A stretch of DNA of 64,000 bases, from assembly GCA_048937405.1 (NCBI GenBank), contig JBHLNF010000008.1:64001-128000 (forward strand), given 5' to 3'. Position 1 is the stretch's first letter. Every line of letters starts with the position of its first letter. The notes under the pieces are model-generated. The model saw nothing but the letters and a program-made list of their open reading frames with translations, was not told the origin of the DNA and made no database searches. The position numbers were made by a program, and so were the translations under genes. Source of the stretch: Promethearchaeota archaeon. Its GTDB lineage: Archaea > Asgardarchaeota > Lokiarchaeia > Sigyniarchaeales > SOKP01. Shown in pieces: positions 5,850 to 33,056 of the stretch.

Positions 5850-6896
5850 CTATTTTTTAGATACAAGTAAAGCTTTTGCTAATTTATTAAAACTTTCTTC
5901 CACATTTTTACCTGTTAAAGCAGATGTTTCTATATATTCTAAATTTAAATCCATTGCGGTCTTTTCCGCATTTTCCATTAAAATTTTTCTTTCATTAATC
6001 AGATCTTCTTTATTGCCTAATATAAATCCTATTATATCTTCTTTCTCTATCTTTATATTTTTAAGTATATCATTATACCAATTAGAAATGCTTTCAAATG
6101 ATTTTGTATTTGTTAAATCAAAGATTAGAATTACACCCTCTAAACCCTTATAAAAATGACGCCGCATGAGTTCAAATTTTGTCTGACCAGCAATATCCCA
6201 TAGAATTAAATTCACAAAATCATCATCTATTTTTATAATCTTTTCTGAAATTGAAACGCCAAGTGTAGGAATGTAGGTACGCATGAAAGCATGATCGGTA
6301 AATCTTAGAATTGTACTTGTCTTTCCTACACCAGGATCTCCACATACTACTATTTTAAAATGATATCCATATGCTCTTACTTTTGTTTTATCTTCTTCAG
6401 GAAATGCTTTAGCTTCAGAACTTAGCTTCTCTTTATTAGATAAATCATCTAGGATTTCTACTACTTTTTTTTTCAATTTACCAATTTCCGTAAAAATATC
6501 GTCTGATTTCGCATGTTTATTTTCTAATTCTATTATCTTTTGAGCACTTTCATCAAATGCAGATTTAAGATAATCGAGATATTTATAGAAGATTAGATCA
6601 TCTGATTCTTTAAAGAGTAATGTAAGTGATGTCAAAGCAACTCCCCCTCGTTTTGTTTCATCTGGTCGTTCAATATATTTAGTTATTCCTTTCAAATTTA
6701 ACATAGGGAAAGGGATAATCACTAAACTTTGAGGAACAGCACCACGGTCAGTTGAGAGCATGGTAACTGATTTAATTCCTACTGACATACGAATATCATC
6801 AGATAAATCAATTGGATCCCATAAGAATGGTTTTGGGCCAATATCCTCGTCTAATACTGTGTATACGATTGCATTAATAATTTCTTTTGACATCAT
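5850..6896 (-). CDS. Longin/uDENN-like domain fused to a Rab-like GTPase
   Basis: C-terminal GDPGVGKTS/WDIAGQ/NKED/ETSA; N-terminal domain with LDEDIGPKP and DETKRG. Confidence 0.85.
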   Translation of the reverse strand: MMSKEIINAIVYTVLDEDIGPKPFLWDPIDLSDDIRMSVGIKSVTMLSTDRGAVPQSLVIIPFPMLNLKGITKYIERPDETKRGGVALTSLTLLFKESDDLIFYKYLDYLKSAFDESAQKIIELENKHAKSDDIFTEIGKLKKKVVEILDDLSNKEKLSSEAKAFPEEDKTKVRAYGYHFKIVVCGDPGVGKTSTILRFTDHAFMRTYIPTLGVSISEKIIKIDDDFVNLILWDIAGQTKFELMRRHFYKGLEGVILIFDLTNTKSFESISNWYNDILKNIKIEKEDIIGFILGNKEDLINERKILMENAEKTAMDLNLEYIETSALTGKNVEESFNKLAKALLVSKK

Positions 6897-7333: not shown

Positions 7334-8377
7334 TTAACTATATGATTTGTATAAATGATTTGCGATTGTTGAAAACGCATAATTAACATTTTCTCCCAAG
7401 AGTGCTGAAGTCTCAACAAATTTCAGACTTAATTGATCTGCTAATTGAGTCGCCATTTCGGAAGTTACTTTCCTCTGTTCCGTTAAATCTCTTTTATTAC
7501 CAATAATAAATCCTTTTAAATCAACGGCTCTATCTTTTAGCTGTTCCATTACATCAGAATACCACTTAGGTATATTAGTGAAGGATTCAATTCGGGTTAA
7601 ATCAAAAACGAAAAATACTGCATCAGAACCTTTGTAAAAATGCTGTCTCATAGTTTGAAATTTTTGCTGACCGCCAATATCCCATAATGTCAACTGTATG
7701 ATAGAATCATCGATTTTAAAAACTTTGTCTGAAACCATAACACCAAGCGTGGGTACGTAATTTCTCCGGAATGCATTATTTGTATATCTTAATATTAATG
7801 ATGTCTTTCCAACACTAGGATCACCAACAATTATTATTTTAAATTGATAATCTATTAAATTTCGATCTTTAATTTTTAGTGCTGGAAATTCTTCTTTATC
7901 TTGCTGTGAAATCTCTTGTAGTTTTAATTCTTCTAAAAGACTCGATATATTAAATTCTAAATTCTCTAATATTTTTATGAAATCCTCCCTAGAACTCTCA
8001 GATTTTTCTAAATTTATAATATTAGGGACATTATTATTAAAAGGAACAGACAGCTCTTTAATATATTTGTAAAAAATTACATCGTCTACTTCCTGAAATA
8101 GTAATATTATTGCCGATTGACCAATTTCTCCACGTCTAGAAGGATCATGCCATTTTATAAATTTGACTAATCCTTTTAAATTCAATGAAGGAAAGGGTAG
8201 TATTACTAACGACTCGGGAATTTGCCCTTCCTCACCTGTTAAAATAGTTAAAGTTTTGATACTTATATGAATGAGGTTAATTTGAGAAAATTTAGCACCA
8301 CACCAAGCTACGGGATTTGGTCCCAATTCATCATTCATCTCTACATAGATTATGCCTGATATTAATTGTTGCGTCAT
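7334..8377 (-). CDS. Longin/uDENN-like domain fused to a Rab-like GTPase (paralogue of 5850..6896)
   Basis: GDPSVGKTS/WDIGGQ/NKRD/ETSA; N-terminal MNDELGPNP and DPSRRG; colinear with the neighbouring gene. Confidence 0.85.
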   Translation of the reverse strand: MTQQLISGIIYVEMNDELGPNPVAWCGAKFSQINLIHISIKTLTILTGEEGQIPESLVILPFPSLNLKGLVKFIKWHDPSRRGEIGQSAIILLFQEVDDVIFYKYIKELSVPFNNNVPNIINLEKSESSREDFIKILENLEFNISSLLEELKLQEISQQDKEEFPALKIKDRNLIDYQFKIIIVGDPSVGKTSLILRYTNNAFRRNYVPTLGVMVSDKVFKIDDSIIQLTLWDIGGQQKFQTMRQHFYKGSDAVFFVFDLTRIESFTNIPKWYSDVMEQLKDRAVDLKGFIIGNKRDLTEQRKVTSEMATQLADQLSLKFVETSALLGENVNYAFSTIANHLYKSYS

Positions 8378-18362: not shown

Positions 18363-19265
18363 TTGCTGAATTTTGATAATGAACAAAAAGTAGTTCAAAT
18401 TGGAAATATTAAAATAGGTGGTCAACCAGGAGAAAATCCAATTGTTATGATTGGTACTGTTTTTTATGCAAAACATAAGGCATTATTAGATGAAAAAACA
18501 GGTGAAATTGATAAGAAATTAGTTGAAGAAGAATTAAATAATTATATAGAAATCATCGAAGAAACACAATTACAAGGTGTTATAGATGTAATTGGGGCAT
18601 ACCCAGAAGCATTGATAAAAGAATGTGAATTTATCGCAGATAATGTAGAATATCCCTTTTTAGTTGATGGACTAAATGATTCCTCAAGGATCCCTGCAAT
18701 GGAAGGATTACAGGAAATAGGATTACTAGATCGAGCTATTTTAAATAGTATTGATGAAAATACCACTGATGAAAATTTAGAGAAATTAAAACAAATTCGA
18801 GTAAAAAATGCAGTATTATTGACATTTGGAAATAAATATATATTTCCTCAGCAAAAGTTAAAATTTTTAAGAGAGATCTTAATACCCAAAACCGAGAAAG
18901 CAAATATCAAAAATATTATAGTTGATACCGCAGTTTTAGATTTACCATCAATTTCTATTAATTTTGAAACAGCAGGACTAATTAAAAAAGAATTAGGTTT
19001 ACCAACTGGATTTGCTCCTTCCAATGCAATTTATGGATGGAGTTATATTAAAAAATTTGGTGAAAATGCACGATGCGGCGCAATTGCTTCTATAATGACC
19101 TATTGTGCCACTGCTCCGAGTGATTTTATTTTATTTGGACCAATAAAATTTGCAAAGTGTACTATACCCGCTGTTGCTTTAATTTCCGGTGTAAACTCAT
19201 ATTATCAAAAAAGAGTAAAAAGACAGAAAATATCTGAACGTACTCCCTTAAAAACAATTTTTTAA
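18363..19265 (+). CDS. mtrH: MtrH-family pterin methyltransferase, stand-alone
   Basis: IGGQPGENPIVMIGTVFY, RAILNSI, VDTAVLD, LPTGFAPSNA, DFILFGPI; no other mtr genes nearby. Confidence 0.85.
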   Translation: MLNFDNEQKVVQIGNIKIGGQPGENPIVMIGTVFYAKHKALLDEKTGEIDKKLVEEELNNYIEIIEETQLQGVIDVIGAYPEALIKECEFIADNVEYPFLVDGLNDSSRIPAMEGLQEIGLLDRAILNSIDENTTDENLEKLKQIRVKNAVLLTFGNKYIFPQQKLKFLREILIPKTEKANIKNIIVDTAVLDLPSISINFETAGLIKKELGLPTGFAPSNAIYGWSYIKKFGENARCGAIASIMTYCATAPSDFILFGPIKFAKCTIPAVALISGVNSYYQKRVKRQKISERTPLKTIF

Positions 19266-20767
19266 CCAATATATCTTAAAAGTAAATCTTTTGTCTGCTT
19301 TAAAAAATCTGTTAATTGTTTGTTTATAATTTTTTTCTTCTTTTCATTATCAACTAGAAATAAAATAAACATATTATTTTCTTCAATTTGTATTTTTTTA
19401 AAAAGAATAACTGAATTTGCTACTTTAAATATTGCTTCTTCTTTCTGTAGAGCTTTAAATTTAGAAAAAATTTTAAATAACATTGTAAATTGTGGTGCTG
19501 TTACTTCAAATACATTCATAACTTCAGTTTTCGGTATTTTAATTAAATCCATTGCATCTGTGCTATAGAAATCCGCTAAAACTAATCCATCAGCACTTAA
19601 TAATAAAGTTAAATAAGAATTTGTTGCTAACGAAAAATTTTTTAAATTATGGTTAATCAAATCTCTATTCGGACTTAGTTTTGATATACCAGAGGAAAAT
19701 GCTCTTAAAACTGTAAAAATTTGGAAGATACTAGTAATATATATTTCTATTGTGTCATTGTTGGAGATTTCAGATAGTTTTTTTTTTATATACTCAATAT
19801 TTTCTTTAATTTCTCTTGAATTAATTATATCAGAATCTCCCTTGGATAAAACATATATAATTGGAGTATTTTGATTAAATTTATTTAATACGTTTTTTAA
19901 ATCTTGAAGATATTCAATACTTTCTTCAAATCTTTTGTTATTTTTAATATCGATAAAATAAAAAAGTAAATCTGCTTCATACAAATAAATTTCTGCTTTA
20001 TTTATATATTTCTTTCTAAATGTATATTGCCCTCCTAAATCCCATAAAAAAATTGTTGCTCCCAAAGCTTCTATAGATTTGATACTTGCTCCTGCTGTGG
20101 GTTTTAAGCCAATTAATTTACTATATTTCCGATCCACTGATAATAAAAAACTTGTTTTTCCACTATCATCCAACCCAGCAAATAAAATTTTCATTTTTCG
20201 ATGAGTAGTAATTGGAGTTGAAGGATTTCGCTCAATTTCTATTAAATTTTGTAAAAGTTTATGAAAAAAAGGTAAAGCCTCTTCACGTGGTGGATAATAC
20301 TTTACCATTTTTTTATCAAAAGTTTGGAAAAATTCATATACTATAGGTTTAATTCTATTCATATTATTGTATAAAAAGCTCCGACTATTTTCTTCTACTA
20401 ATATAGAAAATGCTGTAGCTACAGGGTGGATTGAATTTAATCTAATAAAATGGAAGTAAGTAAGAGATGTAGTCTTAAAATCAGGATAAGGTAAAATTGC
20501 GAAATATTGTAATTTTCTAAGATCCTTTTCTTGAGAAATTATTTTATCACTAATAAATAAACTTAAATTTTTTATTGAAATTTGAGTTATATCTCGCATA
20601 CTCAGAACAAGTTCCGTTTCCATCTTTGAGGATTTATCAATTTCTTTTAATTCTTTTTCAGTATAATGCTCTGGAAAGCAATATATAGGTGATGGACCGA
20701 GTTCTCCATATACACTTAAAACAAAACCTTTTAGAATTGAAGATTTGAATAATTCTTCCATTATCAT
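19262..20767 (-). CDS. Longin-like domain + Rag/Arf-like GTPase + roadblock domain protein
   Basis: N-terminal VYGELGPSP; GLDDSGKTS, WDLGGQ, variant G4 SKGD, TSIF; C-terminal LLLSADGLVLAD roadblock pattern. Confidence 0.82.
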   Translation of the reverse strand: MIMEELFKSSILKGFVLSVYGELGPSPIYCFPEHYTEKELKEIDKSSKMETELVLSMRDITQISIKNLSLFISDKIISQEKDLRKLQYFAILPYPDFKTTSLTYFHFIRLNSIHPVATAFSILVEENSRSFLYNNMNRIKPIVYEFFQTFDKKMVKYYPPREEALPFFHKLLQNLIEIERNPSTPITTHRKMKILFAGLDDSGKTSFLLSVDRKYSKLIGLKPTAGASIKSIEALGATIFLWDLGGQYTFRKKYINKAEIYLYEADLLFYFIDIKNNKRFEESIEYLQDLKNVLNKFNQNTPIIYVLSKGDSDIINSREIKENIEYIKKKLSEISNNDTIEIYITSIFQIFTVLRAFSSGISKLSPNRDLINHNLKNFSLATNSYLTLLLSADGLVLADFYSTDAMDLIKIPKTEVMNVFEVTAPQFTMLFKIFSKFKALQKEEAIFKVANSVILFKKIQIEENNMFILFLVDNEKKKKIINKQLTDFLKQTKDLLLRYIG

Positions 20768-21034
20768 AAATAACTATATTTGAATTATAAGATGTAAATT
20801 TCTTTATTTTATTTAAGCAAATTTAATTATTAATAACTGAGTAATTTTTCCCTTTTTAGTTTGTTTTATAAATGTTTTTTCTTTTTTTAAAACACCATTT
20901 TTAATTGTACAACGGTGTTTTAATAGTTATATTTCTTGAGTAAGCCTTAAATAAAAATCTTTCTTCATTATAAATTAATTTTACGAAGTCAAGTTATATT
21001 AAAGATAAAAAAGGAAAAAGGAGAATAAAAAATT

Positions 21035-22390
21035 TTGAAAGCTAAAAGAATAAATTTCGTTTTATTTCTCTTCTTTATAAATATTGGATTTACTTATGAA
21101 TTTAGTCAAATATCTGAGATCTACCAGAAAAATGTTAACACCAATAGAAATTTGTTTATTTCATCTCTTAACAATTCGATTATTTTAGAGTGGAATTTTA
21201 CATGGGGTGGAAATGATAATGAAATTGCTACGGACATTGTACTAGATTCATTAGGAAATATTTATATTACAGGATATGCGAATTATTCGTTTATAGGAAA
21301 TTTTGATATAATTTTAGCAAAATTTGATAGTTCAGGTCAAATCCAATGGAATAGAACATTTGGAGGAGATGGATGGGATAGTGGTTATGATATCGCGCTT
21401 GACTCAAACAATAATATATATCTAGCAGGACGTATAGATCTGAGTGAGGAACCATGGGATAGTAATACAGATCTTATTTTAGTTAAATATAATTCTCTTG
21501 GTGAGTTTCAGTGGAATAAGACTTGTGGCGGAGAAGGAGAGGATACTTATTTAGGGATGACTCTAGATTCAGTTGATAATATATATATTACTGGATATGT
21601 TTCAAACATTAGTGACGGTGATTATCCTGATTTAGTAGTATTTAAATATAACCATTTAGGAAATCATTTATGGAACAGAACTTGGGGGGAACATGGTGAG
21701 GATTATGGATTAGATATTGTCTTAGATTCCTCAGGTAATATTTATCTCACTGGTCAGAGTTTTGACGAGTCTAGTGGGGCAAATATATGTTTATTGAAAT
21801 ATAACAATTTAGGTGAATTTCAGTGGAAAAAAACATGGAATAAGAGTATTAAACATGAATATGGAACGGGAATTGCGTTAGATTCTTCTGAAAATATTTA
21901 TATTACTGGAATTACTCTTGTTGACTCATATCCTAACTATGATATGGTTTTTCTAAAATATAATGCTAGCGGTGCATTGGTTTGGAATCGAACATGGGGT
22001 AAAAAATATTTTGATGCTTTATTAGATATTGCAATAGATTCAGAAGATAATATATATTTAGCTGGAATAGTAAATTATTCGACTGCAAAACTATATGATT
22101 TTTGCTTAATGCAATTCAATATTAATGGTGAACAGCAATTTAATCATACATGGGGGGGGATAAAAAACGATCAGTGCAGAGCATTAACTATAGATTCATC
22201 CAACAATATCTTTCTAGCAGGATACACAGAAAGTTTTGGCTCCGGTTATATTGATATTTATTTGGCAAAGTTTTCTAAGTCAGCTGATAAAAAAGAAAGT
22301 TCAGAAATACATAGTTATGATTTATCTCTTTTAATATTATGTACTATCTTAATTGTAGGGATAATCATTAAAAAGAAATTAAAGCATTGA
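21035..22390 (+). CDS. Secreted SBBP-repeat beta-propeller protein with a C-terminal sorting/TM tail
   Basis: Signal peptide; seven repeats of W-x-x-T-W-G-G...LDSxxNIYxTG...KY; tail IHSYD-TM-KKKLKH. Confidence 0.85.
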   Translation: MKAKRINFVLFLFFINIGFTYEFSQISEIYQKNVNTNRNLFISSLNNSIILEWNFTWGGNDNEIATDIVLDSLGNIYITGYANYSFIGNFDIILAKFDSSGQIQWNRTFGGDGWDSGYDIALDSNNNIYLAGRIDLSEEPWDSNTDLILVKYNSLGEFQWNKTCGGEGEDTYLGMTLDSVDNIYITGYVSNISDGDYPDLVVFKYNHLGNHLWNRTWGEHGEDYGLDIVLDSSGNIYLTGQSFDESSGANICLLKYNNLGEFQWKKTWNKSIKHEYGTGIALDSSENIYITGITLVDSYPNYDMVFLKYNASGALVWNRTWGKKYFDALLDIAIDSEDNIYLAGIVNYSTAKLYDFCLMQFNINGEQQFNHTWGGIKNDQCRALTIDSSNNIFLAGYTESFGSGYIDIYLAKFSKSADKKESSEIHSYDLSLLILCTILIVGIIIKKKLKH

Positions 22391-22580
22391 AATAATTCTT
22401 ATTTTTTTATTTGCTTGAAGATTTAAACCCCATATTTTATACTTAAGTAAAAAATATCCTATCTTTAAATAAAACGAGTATTTTAACGTACTTATTTATT
22501 AATTACTATATATTCTATAATTAAGTAAAGTGGGTATTTTTACTCACTTATTTATTAATAACTTTATATTTAAATCATAA

Positions 22581-23543
22581 ATGTCTTTGAAAAAAATTGC
22601 TGAAAGCATAAGAAATAATCAATATATTATTGAGAAAATGGAAATAAGTCCCATTGTACAGTATATTGATAAAAATTCCTTTAAGAGTAATAAAATATTC
22701 AGTGATATTGGTGAAGATTCTGCTGCAATAAATTATAATGAGAAATTAATATTACTTACAACCGATCGAATTAGGACTTCATTTATTGAAAACTTTCCAT
22801 TTGGAGCTGGATTTAGTTCTGTTTTGGTAAGTGTAGATGACATATATGCATGTGGGGGTTCTCCATTAGCAGCAAGTATTATAATATCGGTTAAAGAATC
22901 TAATATCTGCAATAAACTATTGGAAGGAATTTGTGAAGGTTCACAGAAATTCCAAGTCCCAATCATAAGAGGTCATACAAATGTCAATAGTAAGTATTAT
23001 GAATTAAGTTCTACAATGATAGGTGAAATAAATAAAAGTGATTATATTTCTGCGGGAAATGCTCAGAAAGATGATAAAATTATTTTAGCCGTTGATTTTG
23101 ATGGTAAAATTGGGAAAGCTAGTAAATTTTATTATGATACAACAACATTTAAAGATTCTGAGACTGTATTAAAGAAAAGAAGATCTATGAATGTTTTAGC
23201 TAAAAAACAATTAGTTAATGCTTCTAAAGATGTTTCAAACGGAGGAATTTTTGGAACTTTATTACAATTAATAAAATATTCAAATGTAGGAGCAAATGTG
23301 AATATTAACAGAATTCTAATTCCACCAATATTAATCGAAAATGAATATGATTTAGAAACATATCTTCAGATGTATCTCACAACATCATTTGTTTTAACTG
23401 CTCCAAAAAATAACTGTAAAGAAGTAATTAAAATATTCAATGAATTTGGATTAGAAGCTCAAATCATAGGAGATATTATTAAAGAAAAGAATCTTTTGAA
23501 AATAAATGATGGAATAAATTCAATAGATGTAATACGATTTTAA
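22581..23543 (+). CDS. AIR synthase-related (PurM/ThiL/SelD superfamily) protein, methanogenesis-marker-2/sll0787-like
   Basis: IGEDSAAI, DDIYACGG.PL, RGHT and ASKDVSNGG motifs; no N-terminal SelD Cys/Sec motif. Confidence 0.75.
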   Translation: MSLKKIAESIRNNQYIIEKMEISPIVQYIDKNSFKSNKIFSDIGEDSAAINYNEKLILLTTDRIRTSFIENFPFGAGFSSVLVSVDDIYACGGSPLAASIIISVKESNICNKLLEGICEGSQKFQVPIIRGHTNVNSKYYELSSTMIGEINKSDYISAGNAQKDDKIILAVDFDGKIGKASKFYYDTTTFKDSETVLKKRRSMNVLAKKQLVNASKDVSNGGIFGTLLQLIKYSNVGANVNINRILIPPILIENEYDLETYLQMYLTTSFVLTAPKNNCKEVIKIFNEFGLEAQIIGDIIKEKNLLKINDGINSIDVIRF

Positions 23544-23707
23544 GTATTTTATTCAAAAAGCGATCTTAGATAATAAAAAAAAATCTTTTATATTTTTATT
23601 ATTATTATTTGTTCTAATTTTCCCTATATTATACGTTAATGATTTAAGAGAAACTTTATAAATAATTTCTTTAATATTTTTTAATTAAGTTTTAGTAGTT
23701 GATTTTG

Positions 23708-24022
23708 TTAATTTAGAATTAAATGACAAGTACTACAATATTTACGAGTAGAATCATTAACAGCACCACACATTTGAAAGATAATTTTTTTTGATTTCTT
23801 TACTGTTATTTCCACTTCTTTTTCTGCCTTAAATTTAGCTAATTTTTCTTCTACTTCTCTTGCTTCTTTTTTAATTTTTGAAGTAAATTTATCTAAACGC
23901 TCTTTACCACCGCCTATTTTATCTTTAAGTTTAGATTTAAAGGAACTTTCAGAAGTTTGTTCTTTGTCTGCTGAACTAACCGATGTTTCGTTTAATTCTT
24001 CTTCATTATTGGATTCATTCAT
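23708..24022 (-). CDS. Hypothetical charged protein with a degenerate C-terminal zinc ribbon
   Basis: FQMCGAVN...YCSTC retains three of four zinc-ribbon cysteines. Confidence 0.55.
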   Translation of the reverse strand: MNESNNEEELNETSVSSADKEQTSESSFKSKLKDKIGGGKERLDKFTSKIKKEAREVEEKLAKFKAEKEVEITVKKSKKIIFQMCGAVNDSTRKYCSTCHLILN

Positions 24023-24150
24023 TAAGTTTTATCATTTTATTTAGTTTTAATACATAAGATTAATAACAATTAGATTAATATTTATTTTTATCATAATGAT
24101 TAGCCATTAACAAGTTAAACAATAATGGCTATATTTAATGAAGTATAAAA

Positions 24151-24693
24151 ATGCGTAGGAAAATGATTTTTGATTTCAAAAAGGAATATAATGGTGTAAT
24201 ATCTGTTATTGGAGCAAGTGAAATTGATAAAGATACAAAAAAAAAAGCTGTTGAAATTGGTAAATTACTTGCTCAAAATAGATATATTGTTGCTTGTGGT
24301 GGATTATCCGGTGTAATGAAAGCTGTTTGCAAGGGAGCAAAAATTGAAAATGGATTAACAATTGGAATTATTCCCTACATTGAAAAATCAGCAGCAAATA
24401 AATACGTTGACATTGTTATTCCTTGCCCATTTTCTCAAGCAAGGAATATTGTTGTAGTTCTTAGCGGTGATGCATGTTTAGCAATTAGTGGTAAAGCAGG
24501 GACTTTATCAGAAATCTGTTTTGCATGGATTTATCAAAAGCCAATAGTAGCATTATCTGGTGTAAAGGGATGGTCATCAAAAATAGCCAATCAAAAATTA
24601 GATGATCGAAGATTTGATATAATCTATGGTGTTGAAACTCCTCAAGAAGCAATTTCTAAATTAATTGAATTATTAAATACTCCAAAAATTTAG
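24151..24693 (+). CDS. LOG-family (Rossmann-fold nucleotide-binding) protein
   Basis: CGGLSGVMKAVCKGA, GLTIGIIP, ARNIVVV, GTLSEI. Confidence 0.88.
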   Translation: MRRKMIFDFKKEYNGVISVIGASEIDKDTKKKAVEIGKLLAQNRYIVACGGLSGVMKAVCKGAKIENGLTIGIIPYIEKSAANKYVDIVIPCPFSQARNIVVVLSGDACLAISGKAGTLSEICFAWIYQKPIVALSGVKGWSSKIANQKLDDRRFDIIYGVETPQEAISKLIELLNTPKI

Positions 24694-24851
24694 ATTATAA
24701 GCTCAAAAAAAAATATTCATTGAGAAAATCAATTATATCTGAATATCAATAAGAAATGCAAAAAATAAAATAGTATGAAATAATTTTGTAAATTACAAAA
24801 AGAATATATTTATATTTAAATTACTTTTATAAAAATAGGTGAAATTAGACT

Positions 24852-25823
24852 TTGGAAAAAAATCTTAAACAATCAATATTATACTTAAAGAAAGAGGAAC
24901 CAGAGTTACCTATATCAGTAAATAAGGTTTTATTCACTGGTCTTGATGATGCGGGTAAAACAAGTATTATTTTATCACTTCAAAGAGAGTTTTCTAAAAT
25001 AGCAATATTATCCCCCACACGAGGAGCACAAAGGAGAATATTTAATTTTTTGGGTAAGGAGATATCAGAATGGGATTTAGGAGGCCAATTAGCATATCGT
25101 ATTGCCTATTTAAAAAATCCAGGAAAATATTTTGAAGGTACTGAAATTGCTATATATGTAATTGATATACAAAATAAAGAAAGATTTTCTGAGGCTATTA
25201 GTTATTTTAAAGATGTCATAGATCAATTTCAAAAATTAGAAATAGAACCTCCAATATATGTATTCCTCCACAAATTCGACCCTGCTCTAAGAAGAAATGC
25301 CCAAAATGAGATGGAAACATTAGTTCTTGATTTAAAAGATAAACTAAAAGCAACTGAATATAAAAAAATATTTTACTATGAAACGTCCATTTATAATTTT
25401 GGCTCAATAATAGCAGCTATGTCAGAAATTCTTTTAGATTTGTATCCAAAATCTGAATTAATTGAAAAAACAATTCAAGAATTTGCTAAGAAAGTTGAAT
25501 CTGATGGAGTGGTTATTATCGATGATAATTCCCTCATAATTGGATCATATTATAAAGATGATGAAATTAGGCATCTCCTAAACGCCAGCTGTCCATTTTT
25601 TTTAACTCTTCATGATTCATTCCAATACACGAATCCTGCAGAAGATAAGTTTGGTGATCGGATGTTAATTCAGCGTTTTGGCAGAAACTTCATATTTAAA
25701 CAATTCGAATTAAAGAAAGACATGCCACCATATTATTTACTACTTGTGAAGGAAGAGCCTGTTTTTAATAAGGAAGATCTTGAATCTTTTATTAATTTAT
25801 TAGGGGAAATATTGTACAAATAA
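24852..25823 (+). CDS. Rag-like GTPase with a C-terminal roadblock domain
   Basis: GLDDAGKTS, WDLGGQ, Rag-type G4 HKFD and G5 TSIY, followed by DGVVIIDDNSLIIGS. Confidence 0.85.
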   Translation: MEKNLKQSILYLKKEEPELPISVNKVLFTGLDDAGKTSIILSLQREFSKIAILSPTRGAQRRIFNFLGKEISEWDLGGQLAYRIAYLKNPGKYFEGTEIAIYVIDIQNKERFSEAISYFKDVIDQFQKLEIEPPIYVFLHKFDPALRRNAQNEMETLVLDLKDKLKATEYKKIFYYETSIYNFGSIIAAMSEILLDLYPKSELIEKTIQEFAKKVESDGVVIIDDNSLIIGSYYKDDEIRHLLNASCPFFLTLHDSFQYTNPAEDKFGDRMLIQRFGRNFIFKQFELKKDMPPYYLLLVKEEPVFNKEDLESFINLLGEILYK

Positions 25824-26114
25824 TTCTATTATTTTATAGTAATTGATTAGATAAAATAAAAAGAAGATTCATTAGTTTATAGGTTTTTAAAAAAAAGCAG
25901 ATCAATTCAATTTTAAGGATTTTACATAGGTTCGCTTACAATCTAAAAATATTAATCTTAGCCTTGCTTTTTTAGTAGTAGAGAATTATTACTAATATTA
26001 ATAAAATTTTATTTTTATTTGTTATTTATAAGTTAAAAAATTAAATGTATTGAATTACAAAAGTCTAAATAAACTGTGAAAAAGCTTTAAAAACCAAAAA
26101 GTGGGAAAAATCTA

Positions 26115-27200
26115 TTGATTATATGCCAGAATTGCGGGACTACTAATAATGAGCTTAATACTCGTATTTGCAGGAATTGTGGTTCATTATTACCAATACC
26201 TTCTAAATCTAGTAGGGAAAGAGGAAAAAAAATAATTCTAGAAAAGAAAAAAAAGAAAAAGGAATCAAAAAAAGTTATAAAAGAAACTATAAATTCAGCA
26301 GAAAAATCAAAGGAAGATTTAATACTAGAAGAAATACCAAAAGAAATTGATAGTAATGAAAATCTAGGTGAAATGCATGAGATTCCTACAACATCGAAAG
26401 AAAAATTTATAGTACCAACTCATAAAGAAAAAGAACCTTCAGTTTTACAAGAAATTCCCGCACAGCCTTTTAAAGGTTCAATAATCAATTCCCAAGGTGG
26501 TATAACTAAACCTAAACCTATACCTAAACCTTTACCTATCCCCCCTTCTCGTTCTGAGGATGCAATCACAGATGCTTTCACAGAACTTAAAAGTTCTATT
26601 TTAGAAGAGCAAAATAAAGAACAAGAAATTTCTTTGTCTCCAATTCCTTCAGAGAATACTAAAATTGAAGAATCAATATTAAAACAAAAACAATTAGAAA
26701 AAGATATGACTGACGTTTTAAGTTTTCTTTCCAAAAAAATATCAGTTAAGAAATTAGATATTCCTAAAGCTAAGAAAGAAGAAAAAGAGGAATTAAAGGA
26801 GGAAATTCCACCATCTAGTATGAATGAAATTTTGAATAGATTATTAACTTTAGATTTAAACATTGAAGCATCGGCTATTATAAAATCGGATGGAACAATA
26901 TTAGCCTCAGCAACATCAAATAGAATCTCTGATTCTTTATTTGCAACAATAGGAGTGAACTTATCAATGATAGGAGCAGATATTACAGAAGGATTAAGTG
27001 CAGGTACTTTAAAAGCAATATCCTTAAAAGCAACTGAGGGTGTGTTAGATCTTGCACCCATTGATAAGTCAAATCCAAGTGTTAAGGATATGATTTTAAT
27101 TTTGTTTTCTCATTCTAAAGTAAAAAGTGGAATAATTTCATTTGCCATAAGCATTGTTAAAAAACAGATAAAAGAATATTTAGGTTTAAAAAAAGCATAA
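26115..27200 (+). CDS. Zinc ribbon + disordered linker + roadblock/LC7 domain protein
   Basis: CQNC...CRNC at the N terminus, long K/E/P-rich linker, C-terminal IEASAIIKSDGTILAS. Confidence 0.8.
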   Translation: MIICQNCGTTNNELNTRICRNCGSLLPIPSKSSRERGKKIILEKKKKKKESKKVIKETINSAEKSKEDLILEEIPKEIDSNENLGEMHEIPTTSKEKFIVPTHKEKEPSVLQEIPAQPFKGSIINSQGGITKPKPIPKPLPIPPSRSEDAITDAFTELKSSILEEQNKEQEISLSPIPSENTKIEESILKQKQLEKDMTDVLSFLSKKISVKKLDIPKAKKEEKEELKEEIPPSSMNEILNRLLTLDLNIEASAIIKSDGTILASATSNRISDSLFATIGVNLSMIGADITEGLSAGTLKAISLKATEGVLDLAPIDKSNPSVKDMILILFSHSKVKSGIISFAISIVKKQIKEYLGLKKA

Positions 27201-27235
27201 AATAAAAGTCAACCACAACTTAACTAAAATATAAT

Positions 27236-28030
27236 TCAAATCAGCCTTTTTTGTATATTAATTTTATTAATTTTAATTGTATAAAAATAAGATATATTAT
27301 TTTGTAATTCTTGCAAAAATGAATTCATTTCATAAATTGAAACGAGAGGAATTTGGTTTTCATTAATTCTGAAACTATTATTTTCTAGAGTTAACATTAA
27401 TGGAATTAAAATAAATGGCAATTGTCTTCTCAAATTGATTCTATTCCCTAGCAATGCTTGAACTAACTTTGAGAAGATTTCAGGATTTTTTTTTAGTGCT
27501 ATGACTCGGCGTAGTTGTAAATTAGCAGCTTTGTTTATCAAACTAAATGAATCCTTACGTTTCCATTGTTTAGCATCGATTAATAAAACAAATTTTGAAT
27601 AGATACCAATAACATCAATTTCATAACGCTTTTGGGAAGTTTTCAATTTAAAATTTGATTTATCAGAAAATCTAAAATTCTTTTTAGTAATATAACTATT
27701 TCTTGAAAGAATTTGTTCCACTAAGATTTCAAATCCATTATAATTTAATATTTCAGTAATTTGTTTTATATCAAATTCTAAAATTTTGATGCTCTCAATA
27801 ATAAATAAGATTTTATTGACAACGATGTATTCTTGATAATTTCCTTTCTGAATAGATATGAAATCAAAATTCCCTATAAACGCTGTTAACTCATAATAAT
27901 TGAAATGATTAAAGAAAGGAATTTCTGATTGTGTACACCAGATATCAATAACATTTATATCAGTATTTTGCAAAATATGAAATATTTCTATATAGAATTG
28001 CTTTAATGATAAAAGAGAAAAACATTTCAT
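27236..28030 (-). CDS. PD-(D/E)xK nuclease (Mrr-like restriction endonuclease family)
   Basis: FEILVEQIL, YEIDVIG, LLIDAKQW; the true start may lie downstream. Confidence 0.7.
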   Translation of the reverse strand: MKCFSLLSLKQFYIEIFHILQNTDINVIDIWCTQSEIPFFNHFNYYELTAFIGNFDFISIQKGNYQEYIVVNKILFIIESIKILEFDIKQITEILNYNGFEILVEQILSRNSYITKKNFRFSDKSNFKLKTSQKRYEIDVIGIYSKFVLLIDAKQWKRKDSFSLINKAANLQLRRVIALKKNPEIFSKLVQALLGNRINLRRQLPFILIPLMLTLENNSFRINENQIPLVSIYEMNSFLQELQNNISYFYTIKINKINIQKRLI

Positions 28031-28322
28031 TATTTTAATTATAATATTATCATAAAATAAAAGAAAGAGGGTGATGTAATTCTGAAAAAACTTTTAAATT
28101 AGATATTTATCTAAAATAATTTTGAAAATGTACCATACTTTACTTTTAGAAACATCAATATTTTAAAAGATTCTTTTTTTTAGTTATGTGTTTAATATCT
28201 TTTTTTTAGGATAATTAGAGTTTCAATTTAATGACAGAATAATAATGTTATTTATTATCTCGGGGAATTTATTAATAAAAGTATTATTAATTGTATTAAA
28301 AATATTTTAACTGACTATAAAT

Positions 28323-30131
28323 ATGGATTTATTACCCAAAGTATTTAGAACTGAAGGAAATATAGCTGAATTTGATCCAAACAAAATTTTTGAAAGTATT
28401 ATAAAAGAGACTAACATAAATGATGCAGATGCAAAAAATATAACAGAATCAGTAGTAAGGAGAATAATTAGTTCGGGCATTAAATTTCTTTCCGGACCGC
28501 ATATAAGAGAAATAGTTTGTTCAATCCTTTCAGAACAACATTTTGAAGAAGAACGTAAATTGTACACTAGGATAGGAATGCCTTTAATGGATTATGAAGC
28601 ATTACTTGAGAAAAAATCAGGAATAAGACTAAATAAGTGGATTAATCCAGAAAAAATTAATCATTGGTCTGCAAACCAAATAGCTGAAGAGTATACTCAC
28701 TTAAGAATTCTTAGTAATGAAGAATCTAAAGCTCATTTGTATGGTGATATTCATATTAATGGACTAAGTTATTTTGATCTTAGACCATTCACTCAAATAT
28801 GGGATCCTCGATTAATTTTATATGGTGGATTTCCTCCCATTGACAATCTTAATGGCTTTATTAAACAAGAACCACCAAAAAAACTCAGTTCAATCCTTTC
28901 TCAACTATTCAAATGGCTTGAAACTGTTATGAATGAATTTTATGGAAATCAAGATCTCAATCTAATTTCTCTTTTTTTAGCTCCATATGTAACTAGCATA
29001 TCTGAAGAAAAAATAAAGAAAGAAATTCGAAAATTTATCTATGGGATAAATTTATTGCCAATTATTAAAGGACGTGAAATTTTATCAACAAGAATTACTT
29101 CCAGTGCTTCGATCCCTGAAAGCTTTTCAAAACTTATTGCTCTAAATCCCAATGAAAGCATAAATCGTAATTATTCAGATTACAATAGCGATTGTTTAAA
29201 TATTCTTAAGGCATTTATTTTTGTTTTTAAGGAAATTAGTAAAAATCGTATTAATTTTCCATCTCTTAACTTTCAAATCTTACTAGATGATAACTCTATT
29301 GATAATCTAGAACGAAATTATAGTGAATTCTGGGATGATATTAAAACGTATAAAGGTAGCACTTCAATCGATTTTTGTTTTAATTCGTCTATTAATAGAG
29401 ATATTAAAAAATTAGCTCAGAATGATATATATAACGTTGGTATACTTCAGAATATAAGTCTAAATCTACCTAGATATGCCTATATTAGTCAAGATGAAAC
29501 AAAATTTTTTGAATTATTACGTGAGAAAGTAATGCTAAGTTCTGAGGTTTTATTAAAAAAATTTCATATGATTGAAAAAAGATTAAAATTAAAACATTTA
29601 CCTTGTTGTTGTGGCATTATTGATAAAAAGCCATTGTTTAGGTTGGAAAATCAAGACCTTTCATTTAGTTTAGTTGGGTTGAACGAGTCTATCAAAATCT
29701 TAACAAATTATGAACTTCATGAACATATAGATGCAATTAACTTTGGTTTAAGGATATTAAATGAATTGAATAATCTATGTATAGAACTAACTGAAGCAGT
29801 TGGAAAAAATTATGCAATAAGTGAGAATAGTTCATTAAAAGCTATAAATAGATTTACTAGATTAGATCGAAAACATTTTTCAAGTTTATTAAAATATTTA
29901 ACGGAAGATTTAACTTATCAATATTCAAATTCAATTCACTTTCGGAAAGACATTGAGGTTGAATTATTCAAACGTGTGGAGGTTCAAGGCAATTTCCATC
30001 GTTTCATTAAAAATGGAGCAATTGAAAATATTTCATTGTATGATCTTGAATTAAATGCTTTATCTATTCATGAATTCATCAATATAATTAGTAAAAAATC
30101 AAGAATTTCAAGCATAAATTTTTCTTCTTAA
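28323..30131 (+). CDS. ATP-cone + degenerate class III ribonucleotide reductase (NrdD-like) core; probable pseudo-enzyme
   Basis: ATP cone (FDPNKI...SGPHIREIVC), AHLYGDIHI, SLNLPRYA, GLNE, YSNS; no catalytic Cys loop, Zn site or RxxGY glycyl loop. Confidence 0.78.
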   Translation: MDLLPKVFRTEGNIAEFDPNKIFESIIKETNINDADAKNITESVVRRIISSGIKFLSGPHIREIVCSILSEQHFEEERKLYTRIGMPLMDYEALLEKKSGIRLNKWINPEKINHWSANQIAEEYTHLRILSNEESKAHLYGDIHINGLSYFDLRPFTQIWDPRLILYGGFPPIDNLNGFIKQEPPKKLSSILSQLFKWLETVMNEFYGNQDLNLISLFLAPYVTSISEEKIKKEIRKFIYGINLLPIIKGREILSTRITSSASIPESFSKLIALNPNESINRNYSDYNSDCLNILKAFIFVFKEISKNRINFPSLNFQILLDDNSIDNLERNYSEFWDDIKTYKGSTSIDFCFNSSINRDIKKLAQNDIYNVGILQNISLNLPRYAYISQDETKFFELLREKVMLSSEVLLKKFHMIEKRLKLKHLPCCCGIIDKKPLFRLENQDLSFSLVGLNESIKILTNYELHEHIDAINFGLRILNELNNLCIELTEAVGKNYAISENSSLKAINRFTRLDRKHFSSLLKYLTEDLTYQYSNSIHFRKDIEVELFKRVEVQGNFHRFIKNGAIENISLYDLELNALSIHEFINIISKKSRISSINFSS

Positions 30132-30291
30132 AAGGATCGGATATTTCTGATTTTTGGTAAAAAAAGTATTTAATAAGAATAATTATTTTGATTATATTGA
30201 AGTATTATTATGATATTAATATATATTAAAATAAATGATAATTTATACTTTGGATAGTTTAAGATCTTTCTGATAAATTAATGGGGATTGT

Positions 30292-31755
30292 TTGACAAAA
30301 TCAAAAGATAAACAAAATCAAGAAAAATTGCCTGAGGAAAAAACCACAGGGCCTAAATCAGATATTATTAAGGTTATTGTTTTAAGTATTTTTGATGAGA
30401 ATGGTCCTACTCCAAGAATATATTGGCCTCAGGATTTAGAAGATCAAGCAGGACTATTGATTGCTATGAAAACCATTAGTTTATTAATGGGTGATGCTAC
30501 ATATCAAGATGGGACGGATGTTGAAGGAATCAATTATTTTGGAATATTACCTTTTCCAGATTTAAAATTAAATGGTTTAACTTATTTTTTCTTAATTCCC
30601 GATGATACTGCTCGCGGAAAAGCCTTAGCGGCAACAATAACTATTTTAATTAATGAAGAAAATAAAGTGTTTTTCTATGAAAACATGAAATATCTTAGAA
30701 TTATAATGGATAAAGCTGCTACTCAAATTCAGAACAATCAGCAATTTAGTGAAAGAGAAATCATTATGGAAAAATTCCGAGAGGAAATCTTTGAATTTGC
30801 CAGTGAAGTAAAAGATCCTTATTCTACTAAAAGACACATTAAAGTTCTTCTTGCAGGATTAGATAAAGCGGGTAAGACAAGTTTTATGTATGGGATTAGG
30901 AGGAAATATTCCGAAATTATTAAATCTATGCCAACAAAAGGCGTTGAAAGATCTGAAGAAAATATCTTTGAAGAACAGAATACTGCTATTACGATTTGGG
31001 ATTTAGGTGGACAAAAACAATATCGGGAAAGATATCTTGAACAAAGCAAAATGTATTTGTATAATATTGATCTTATGTTCTTCTTTATCGATATTCAAGA
31101 TGTGGAAAGAATAGATGAAGCATTAAACTTATTCAAAAAGATTTTAAAAACAATAATAGAATTAGATGAATTCCCTCCTATTGTTGTTTGCTTAAATAAA
31201 TTTGACCCAGACCTTAAGGGTTCAAAAGAAATTTTTAAAAATTTAGAAATAATTGCTGATGCAATTAAAGAAAATTCAGACAAATTCTTTATTAAAATTT
31301 TTCAGACTAGTATTTTTGATCACTGGAGTCTAATTTCAGCCTATTCTTTTGGATTGTCTCAATTAAGTCCCAATCGAGAATTATTCAGAAATCAATTGAA
31401 AAAATTTGCAAAAAAAACAAATTCAGATGCTATATTACTATTAAATGAAAATGGGATTATTTTATCAAATTATTCTAAATCGGAAATTTCTGGAAAAGTA
31501 TTCGAAGTGAGTGCCCCTCACTTTCAATCACTTTACAAGAATTTTAAAGAATTTAAATTGTTAGAACAAGATTTTATCGTTTCATCTGGGATTTCTGATA
31601 AGTCTAAAAAAGTAATCTTTAAAAGAATAACCGTTGAAAAATATAATTTGTATTTACTTTTATTCTTAGAAAAATCACTTGAAATTGATAAAATAGAAAA
31701 AAATTTACCTGATTTTTCAAAAAACTTGATTGATTTAATCCATACTTATATTTAG
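30292..31755 (+). CDS. FLCN-like longin domain + Rag/Arf-like GTPase + roadblock domain protein
   Basis: IFDENGPTP, FFLIPDDTARG; GLDKAGKTS, WDLGGQ, NKFD, TSIFD; DAILLLNENGIILSN. Paralogue of 19262..20767. Confidence 0.85.
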   Translation: MTKSKDKQNQEKLPEEKTTGPKSDIIKVIVLSIFDENGPTPRIYWPQDLEDQAGLLIAMKTISLLMGDATYQDGTDVEGINYFGILPFPDLKLNGLTYFFLIPDDTARGKALAATITILINEENKVFFYENMKYLRIIMDKAATQIQNNQQFSEREIIMEKFREEIFEFASEVKDPYSTKRHIKVLLAGLDKAGKTSFMYGIRRKYSEIIKSMPTKGVERSEENIFEEQNTAITIWDLGGQKQYRERYLEQSKMYLYNIDLMFFFIDIQDVERIDEALNLFKKILKTIIELDEFPPIVVCLNKFDPDLKGSKEIFKNLEIIADAIKENSDKFFIKIFQTSIFDHWSLISAYSFGLSQLSPNRELFRNQLKKFAKKTNSDAILLLNENGIILSNYSKSEISGKVFEVSAPHFQSLYKNFKEFKLLEQDFIVSSGISDKSKKVIFKRITVEKYNLYLLLFLEKSLEIDKIEKNLPDFSKNLIDLIHTYI

Positions 31756-31778: not shown

Positions 31779-33056
31779 TTAATAAGAAAAAATCTTTTTT
31801 TTACTTCCCTTTCTTAATGACAAGATAATTGCTAGCAAAATTACACTTGATCCTATAACTATAAAAATTACTACAAATATAGGAATTGGAGGGGAACTTG
31901 TAAGATCTGTTTCTAAGACCGTTATTTCAATAGAATATTGCCAGTCATAAGCATGGTGATCTGCGCATATGGGGGAAGGATTAATTGGAAACTCAGAAGT
32001 ACGATCATAAGGGGGTGTTGCACCAGGCACGAAAAACCATGCTCCAATATTCATATTAAATCTAAATAGATCTATTCGATTAAAATAACCTTGTCCCCAG
32101 GTTGGATCACAAGCAATCCATCCAATTTTAGGCACATAATATTCAACCCATGCATGACCGAGAATCTTTTTAGAAGAAAATGTAGACATAGTTAAACCAT
32201 TAAAATTGATATCAAAACTATATTGATCACCTATTTTAGGTCTAAGTGAAGTGTTATTTGTTATTAAAAAACCAGTTACCTTCCTTGCGGGAATACTTTG
32301 AATTCTCAAAAGTGTAATCATTAAGTCAGAAAAATCTGAGCAATCTCCTACTCCTTGATTATATGCTTCTAACGCCCCAATCTCTTCATCTTGTTTTTTA
32401 TATTCAATATTATTAACAATCCAATTGAAAATACCTTGAGCTTTCTCTACAGGAGTATCCGTAGGATTAACAATACTATTTGAGAGTTCTACTAAGCTAG
32501 GATTATCGCATTCATAGAATATTTCTGTGGTATTATATAGTGTAAAGATTTCATCTCCAAAATCATAAACTCCTATATCTTCACTTTGAATGTCATTAAA
32601 TTTAATTTCATTAAGGGTAATATTATATTTTTGATTTAAAGTTAATCTTTCATATCTACTTAATGTTGTATTAAATATATCATAAGAATTATTGAATTTA
32701 TCTAGAACTCCTTTATTTATTTCATCATACCCAGTAATATTATTAAATAAAATTTCACATTCTTGATAAGGAGGACAATATTTGGTTAAAATTGAGTTCG
32801 GTTGACGATCATTCAATCTTGCTACTTTAAAGGTGTAAAACTGAGGTAAAATTCTATTGTGGATCATTGTAAAATTAATTACAACCTCATATTTCACATT
32901 CTGTATTACATCGAATTTAGATACTCCATAGTCAAGTGTGGATAATTGGGGATATATATCTATGGTATTAAAATAATTTATTGAGATTATTCCCATAGGA
33001 TTTATTGAAGAAACAATGAATAAGCATAAGAAAATTACAGATGGTTTTGTCTTCAT
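31779..33056 (-). CDS. Membrane-anchored transglutaminase-like domain protein
   Basis: Triad GDCSDFS / HAWVEYY / CDPTW; signal peptide and C-terminal TM followed by basic residues. Confidence 0.88.
   Translation of the reverse strand: MKTKPSVIFLCLFIVSSINPMGIISINYFNTIDIYPQLSTLDYGVSKFDVIQNVKYEVVINFTMIHNRILPQFYTFKVARLNDRQPNSILTKYCPPYQECEILFNNITGYDEINKGVLDKFNNSYDIFNTTLSRYERLTLNQKYNITLNEIKFNDIQSEDIGVYDFGDEIFTLYNTTEIFYECDNPSLVELSNSIVNPTDTPVEKAQGIFNWIVNNIEYKKQDEEIGALEAYNQGVGDCSDFSDLMITLLRIQSIPARKVTGFLITNNTSLRPKIGDQYSFDINFNGLTMSTFSSKKILGHAWVEYYVPKIGWIACDPTWGQGYFNRIDLFRFNMNIGAWFFVPGATPPYDRTSEFPINPSPICADHHAYDWQYSIEITVLETDLTSSPPIPIFVVIFIVIGSSVILLAIILSLRKGSKKKIFSY

Follow-up and report, generated by a model that had tools for sequence, protein, structure and literature searches.

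Do two paralogous proteins of one archaeal genome, one with a candidate arginine finger and one without, form the unequal halves of a single switch? This question is raised by a 64,000-nt stretch of contig JBHLNF010000008.1 (assembly GCA_048937405.1, positions 64,001 to 128,000) from a Promethearchaeota archaeon of the Lokiarchaeia, referred to here as the window. It encodes two proteins, A (19262-20767, minus strand) and B (30292-31755, plus strand), in which a longin domain, a GTPase (G) domain and a roadblock domain are joined in one chain (longin-GTPase-roadblock, L-G-R; longin-less relatives are denoted G-R). Rag dimers work by holding opposite nucleotide states, and the eukaryotic longin GTPase-activating protein (GAP) complexes for Rag and Arf GTPases always pair a catalytic with a non-catalytic subunit; an original prediction, made from the letters of the window, held that A and B combine both pairings in one heterodimer. 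As judged from sequence, A and B are ancient paralogues of a Lokiarchaeial L-G-R Rag-like family, and the split into a form with the finger arginine (Arg+) and a form without it (Arg−) is old and conserved. That the two also join in a mixed dimer with a single finger is the reading we tentatively favour, giving it somewhat less than an even chance. The features on which the argument turns are the following.

19262..20767, minus strand: A, 501 aa, with a finger-less longin, a Rag-like G domain and a roadblock (open reading frame (ORF), Pfam, AlphaFold2 (AF2) model and structure search)
20225..20767, minus strand: longin domain of A, residues 1-181 (strands and helices of the longin fold in the model)
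20693-20698, minus strand: GP motif of A, residues 24-25, within ELGPSP at the turn between strands 1 and 2
20417..20449, minus strand: loop FIRLNSIHPVA of A, residues 107-117, without ARG, aligned where B has its arginine-finger loop
19835..19846, minus strand: G4 motif SKGD of A, residues 308-311 (sequence)
30292..31755, plus strand: B, 487 aa, TTG start, with an arginine-finger longin, a Rag-like G domain and a roadblock (ORF, Pfam, AF2 model and structure search)
30403..30408, plus strand: GP motif of B, residues 38-39, within ENGPTP at the start of the second longin strand (residues 38-45)
30601..30618, plus strand: loop DDTARG of B, residues 104-109, between strands 4 and 5, with the candidate catalytic Arg108 at 30613-30615
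31195..31206, plus strand: G4 motif NKFD of B, residues 302-305 (sequence)

Both ORFs exist as first described and are colinear, aligning end to end by BLASTP with 32% identity and 54% positives (E = 8e-84). Two roadblock motifs that had been reported as shared are present in each protein, FEV[TS]AP[QH]F (A 420-427, B 404-411) and LSPNR[DE]L (A 364-369, B 358-363), with the longin-less paralogues lacking both LSPNR and FE.xAP.F. A third reported motif, ExYLYxxDL, holds in full only for A (EIYLYEADL), B reading KMYLYNIDL, so that the common part shrinks to YLYxxDL. The G5 motif TSI[FW] is found in A and B, and the Pfam family Gtr1_RagA (PF04670, cut-off 22 bits) matches both (A, 73.4 bits, E = 2.4e-20; B, 95.3 bits, E = 4.9e-27). 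AF2 monomer models (A, predicted local distance difference test score (pLDDT) 86 and predicted template modelling score (pTM) 0.84; B, pLDDT 78 and pTM 0.64) were submitted to structure search and VIA alignment, giving three domains in each protein, an N-terminal longin, a Rag-like G domain and a C-terminal roadblock, with a longin-to-G-domain linker of about 10 residues and no DENN domain after the longin. For the G domain and roadblock together, VIA Z scores are 26-27 to LokiRagO 8yl2 (A, 27.2; B, 26.4) and 20-24 to RagC, Gtr2 and Gtr1 (A, 23.8 to RagC 6nzd_G; B, 23.2 to Gtr2 8fw5_E and 22.6 to RagC), and residues 361-486 of B align with the RagC roadblock 5x6v_G at Z = 15.2. The longins of A (residues 7-186, Z = 16.1) and B (residues 21-175, Z = 18.6, root mean square deviation 2.2 Å over 141 residues) both align with the Loki longin 8yqg_B, and their profiles match each other with an hhalign probability of 99.8.

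A GP motif together with an arginine finger marks FLCN, NPRL2 and SMCR8, and both occur in Asgard longins (2025 survey, PMC12290439). The GP motif is conserved in the A clade and the B clade alike, and it is at the finger that the two part company. With respect to the longin of B, the sole consistent Pfam match is Folliculin (PF11704), which gives B 17-18 bits against a cut-off of 23.3, covers the finger loop in 15/15 B longins, each time below threshold (best E = 2.8e-5), and matches 0/11 A longins; the equivalence of B Arg108 to FLCN R164 comes from this sub-threshold alignment and the position of the loop, not from superposition. A longin profile found no meaningful match among PDB sequences, and eukaryotic FLCN and NPRL2 chains are absent among the 50 structure matches listed, which GTPases dominate. 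Searching the ESM Atlas with both longins returned scores below 0.9, the second match being a cluster with Pfam NPR2 in 19% of its members, a lead only.

For the wider comparison, L-G-R genes were gathered from 30 related genomes, and from 14 genomes of a second family (f2; the families are labelled f1 to f4), and 1.84 billion cluster representatives were searched for more, the best 150 matches being listed. The residues A-R-G are invariant in the 15/15 aligned B longins of families f1 to f4, and an Arg-Gly loop is found in every further B orthologue or representative examined, one of them reading VRG. The G4 motif of B is NKFD here and HKxD in the B orthologues of f2 to f4. Eukaryotic Rags also deviate at G4, with HKxD as a characteristic and not as a strict definition. 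Although predicted to be disordered, the first 21 residues of B are conserved throughout the genus, and this speaks for TTG at 30292 as the start. In the reading that we favour, B is the ancestral, self-sufficient form, with a longin of the FLCN/NPRL2/SMCR8 type, a full G domain and a roadblock dimerisation domain.

Protein A shows the complementary pattern. Among its 118 close representatives (cluster representatives with at least 59% identity to A), none has [AV]RG at the finger loop, and the finger arginine is likewise missing in the 17 A orthologues of the genus and in all those of f2, so that the arginine is not a feature that A orthologues normally keep. The loop that replaces it varies in sequence across the 118 representatives, as expected once the finger constraint is lost. 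The rest of the protein is held more tightly: the G3 motif WDLGGQ is present in 117/118 and the G4 motif SKxD in 113/118 representatives (TKxD in the f2 orthologues), with the G1-G5 motifs, the GP motif and the roadblock all retained. The catalytic Gln, invariant in B, gives way to K or S in several A proteins of f2. Within the genus A is 69-86% identical, a level of conservation from which we take it to be functional. The original prediction was right about the sequences themselves (DDTARG and NKFD in B; FIRLNSIHPVA, no RG loop and SKGD in A), but it overstated the case in calling A inactive, since G1-G5 are intact and the Lys and Asp of G4 survive in SKGD. All A proteins fall in one clade spanning f1 and f2 (Shimodaira-Hasegawa-like approximate likelihood ratio test support 99; 98/97 with the longin alone), with long branches that leave the root uncertain, and the clade has its own inserts in longin and roadblock as well as an invariant Arg129/Arg138. 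A is by its motifs a working-looking GTPase without a finger and not a decayed copy; it is, in our reading, a derived copy under strong selection that has lost the finger and retained the GP motif, the nucleotide-binding motifs and the roadblock. A orthologues start with MEELFK, and the real start of A may be its third codon, the ATG at 20761 (the ORF runs from 20767).

With respect to distribution, A and B occur together in 17/18 genomes of the genus and 11/14 genomes of f2, where there is always one Arg+ and one Arg− protein. The proposed co-occurrence of the two forms across Lokiarchaeia does not extend to families f3 and f4, which have B only, and in the remaining families of the class the Rag-like genes are all longin-less. 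Among the genomes searched, L-G-R seems confined to one order of Lokiarchaeia. B without A is also seen in G056, a 99%-complete genome from a sister genus in f1, in which a 700-bp gap between AIRS-like and MtrH genes marks the place of the missing A (L105, G056:C51:68000-86000), with B, the G-R gene, the AIRS and SLOG genes (both introduced below) and other island genes retained. The apparent reverse, A without B, was examined in three of the genomes that show it, none of them decisive: in G006 the scaffold contains Ns and offers no synteny, in G115 the contig ends after SLOG, and G102, in which no B was found, is a 94%-complete assembly in 290 contigs. Since B also exists without A, any A:B heterodimer is not obligatory for B.

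In the specific case of f4, 4/4 genomes (G021, G027, G023 and G025, representing 3 genera) encode, about 2 kb from B, a stand-alone longin of 169-177 aa, whose gene lies beside a gene pair of DUF1464 and B and is transcribed divergently from it.

L106:12350-12859, plus strand: stand-alone longin of f4
L107:11881-12405, plus strand: stand-alone longin of f4
L129: stand-alone longin of f4
L130: stand-alone longin of f4

Homologous to the longins of the L-G-R proteins, this small protein carries no arginine where the finger would be. As f4 lacks A and has this Arg-less longin beside B, a finger-less longin goes with B, in some families as A and in f4 as a small protein of its own. In f1 and f2 no orthologue of the stand-alone longin was found, the sole matches there being the longin domains of A and B. 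In a longin tree of about 190 columns, with the two tandem longin-GTPase proteins of the window (see below) as outgroup, the f4 longin falls in a polytomy that neither links it to A by descent nor separates it from A. The GP motif is kept in only 1/4 of these longins, the other three resembling FNIP2/NPRL3.

Across the wider L-G-R family, about 26 full-length representatives cover all four combinations of finger and G domain. A live G domain goes with the finger in B and without it in A; a degenerate G domain is found in Arg− proteins of 536-682 aa, and a dead G3 in Arg+ proteins. This pattern of motifs is one of repeated division of labour within the family. The Arg+ proteins with a destroyed G3 (WDYKPK, WNIKEN) are represented by L072:4297-5661 (plus strand) in G024 and by representatives P0161 and P0172, and are likely a GAP-only form; in G024 the gene comes after a G-R gene and a zinc-ribbon gene. 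Six representatives (P0135, P0138, P0141, P0145, P0151 and P0153; 501-682 aa) have no finger and a degenerate P-loop and G3, and look like pseudo-GTPases.

How, then, might A and B work? In the mixed dimer that we favour, one of two B subunits would be replaced by A, the longin and roadblock platforms would hold the dimer together, and a single arginine finger would be left. The finger of B would speed GTP hydrolysis on B's own G domain, and the G domain of A, with no finger facing it, would stay GTP-bound longer. A in the GTP-bound and B in the GDP-bound state would then be opposite states as in RagA:RagC, with the longin pair resembling SMCR8:C9orf72; where A is missing, B would still be able to work, probably by pairing with itself or with some other Arg-less longin. 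We favour B's own G domain as the target of the finger because the catalytic Gln is invariant in B and K or S in several f2 A proteins, and because the linker is so short; replacement of the Gln in those A proteins is what would be expected if A's G domain were not the target. The Arg-less longin beside B in f4 fits a catalytic longin working with a finger-less partner.

Several observations weigh against such a dimer. A and B lie on opposite strands 9.5 kb apart with no common operon, and the island is split in three f2 genomes, with the part around A 80 kb from the part around B or on another contig. No natural A-B fusion was found among the best 150 of the 1.84 billion representatives, the longest match being 682 aa. 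The presumed dimer helices of B (IAMKSISLLMGE, SAPHF) are the same in f4, without A, as in f1 and f2, which suggests that their partner is a constant one, B itself for example. Of the solved Loki Rag-like proteins, 8yl2 is titled a homotetramer in the PDB and 8zla a monomer, and the deposited structure of the Loki longin 8yqg is dimeric. That A always occurs with B is itself little informative, since B is nearly universal in the order.

The strongest competing explanation is that A and B are separate machines: B:B homodimers would switch themselves off by their own fingers, A:A or lone A would be a slow GTPase in a new role with its longin as a binding platform, and the two would co-occur as old members of one gene island. 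We regard this as quite possible, if short of likely. It accommodates the presence of B alone in f3, f4 and G056, the likeness of the B dimer helices whether or not A is present, the existence of Loki Rag and longin structures that are homo-oligomeric, and the inserts and invariant Arg129/Arg138 peculiar to the A clade; published AF2 work has also modelled such architectures as homodimers (PMC10933270). It leaves unexplained, however, why, wherever a genome has two L-G-R genes, exactly one of them is Arg+ and the other Arg−, and why B in f4, which lacks A, is linked to an Arg-less longin.

The neighbourhood of the two genes supplies another candidate partner. The surrounding features of the window are as follows.

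5850-6896 and 7334-8377, both minus strand: two tandem longin-GTPase proteins without roadblock, with GP motifs and RG loops (DETKRGG, DPSRRGE)
22581-23543, plus strand: AIR-synthase-related (AIRS) gene (Pfam)
24151-24693, plus strand: SLOG/LOG-like gene, upstream of the G-R gene (Pfam)
24852..25823, plus strand: third Rag-like GTPase, between A and B, with G domain and roadblock and no longin (Pfam Gtr1_RagA, E = 3e-26)
27236..28030, minus strand: NERD-like gene, a conserved neighbour of B (weak Pfam NERD match; homologue by B in G030, G026 and G056)
28323-30131, plus strand: NrdD-like ORF directly upstream of B (Pfam NRDD, E = 7e-57; weak ATP-cone match)
31779..33056, minus strand: transglutaminase-like gene, convergent with B (Pfam Transglut_core, E = 1.4e-23; by B in G030, G026, G024 and G020)

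The order A, divergent AIRS-SLOG-G-R string, NERD-like gene, B, transglutaminase-like gene is conserved, with f1 and f2 orthologues 35-45% identical. The distance between A and B is usually 8-13 kb on one contig across a dozen f1 genera, and in G030 the whole block fits into 7 kb. The NrdD-like ORF is missing from the corresponding f2 blocks and looks like an f1-specific insertion, not a part of the system. Upstream of A and B (18 genomes each), a search for a shared promoter motif gave AT-rich promoter-like blocks only and nothing specific. The co-directional AIRS-SLOG-G-R string (22581-25823 in the window; L068, L069, L070 and L071), divergent from A, is conserved between the two families and may couple a nucleotide-related enzyme or sensor pair to a Rag-like switch.

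It is on this string that the next alternative rests, in which the true partner of A would be the neighbouring G-R protein (24852-25823), through roadblock pairing or through regulation by the A longin. In f1 and four f2 genomes A lies divergent to the string, and this link is tighter and more constant than that between A and B, and the G-R genes at that position are orthologous between the families (support 100/99). Against this, the G-R protein is closely homologous to PDB entry 8yl2 (E = 1.9e-85), whose title is 'homotetrameric LokiRagO', its roadblock is without the LSPNR and FE.xAP.F motifs of A and B, and G056 keeps G-R, AIRS and SLOG despite having lost A. We consider this pairing unlikely. 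That A is instead a duplicate of B in decay, with lineage-specific damage accounting for the missing arginine and the odd G4, would agree with the variable finger loop but is highly improbable and is rejected on the conservation data, A being intact and 69-86% identical across the genus, present in more than 118 cluster representatives as one clade over two families, with its G3 and G4 motifs kept and a confident model (pLDDT 86).

Returning to the mixed dimer, what would follow from it is that catalytic/non-catalytic longin pairing and an asymmetric Rag dimer already coexist in Lokiarchaeia as a two-gene system, a conclusion that we hold as possible and still rather doubtful. If it is true, a finger-less partner has been recruited at least twice, two families having it as the full-length paralogue A and a third as a stand-alone longin; the asymmetry of a single finger would be a selected state, and the fusion would mark Rag-like GTPases as clients of Asgard GP-motif longins. 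The Arg+/Arg− twins, together with the stand-in Arg-less longin, offer a small two-protein soluble system in which both asymmetries could be tested directly. In the literature searched, no paper was found that describes the Arg+/Arg− twin pair or the complementary stand-alone longin, and a search on the LokiRag structures found no paper either. What is already known is the L-G-R architecture and the GP and Arg motifs; what is new, within that literature, is the asymmetric Arg+/Arg− pair.

Longin-Rag fusions have been published (bioRxiv 10.1101/2020.10.19.343400), and Tran et al. (2024, PMC10933270) described the three-domain L-G-R architecture from MK-D1 with AF2 models, classing its G domain as Rag-like, though near to Arf. 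A and B have the same longin, GTPase and roadblock in one chain as the proteins of Tran et al. (PMC10933270), whose models are homodimers and whose report includes neither the finger difference between two L-G-R paralogues nor their distribution. The 2025 survey asks what the client GTPases of the GP-motif longins in Asgard archaea are (PMC12290439), and a longin fused to a Rag-like GTPase names a likely one. Among solved structures, LokiRagO (8yl2) and LokiRagM (8zla, 9m28), themselves without a longin, are the nearest to the G-roadblock part of A and B, and 8yqg_B, matched by both longins, is the longin of a Lokiarchaeial roadblock-longin protein. With the Rag/Gtr heterodimers (RagA/B:RagC/D, Gtr1:Gtr2), A and B share a G domain followed by a C-terminal roadblock, with Pfam Gtr1_RagA passed; they differ in adding an N-terminal longin, with NKFD or SKGD at G4 in this genome. 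The longin GAP pairs SMCR8:C9orf72, FLCN:FNIP2 and NPRL2:NPRL3 resemble them in having one longin with GP motif and finger, as in B, and a partner without the finger, as in A. The parallel with FLCN:FNIP drawn in the original prediction stands for this pattern of finger and no finger, but the nearer analogue is another pair: C9orf72 keeps GP without a finger, whereas FNIP2 and NPRL3 lack GP (PMC12290439), so that SMCR8:C9orf72, in which the finger-less partner keeps GP as A does, is the best eukaryotic analogue. Compared with all these eukaryotic pairs, A and B are without DENN and have the longin fused to its likely client GTPase and to a roadblock.

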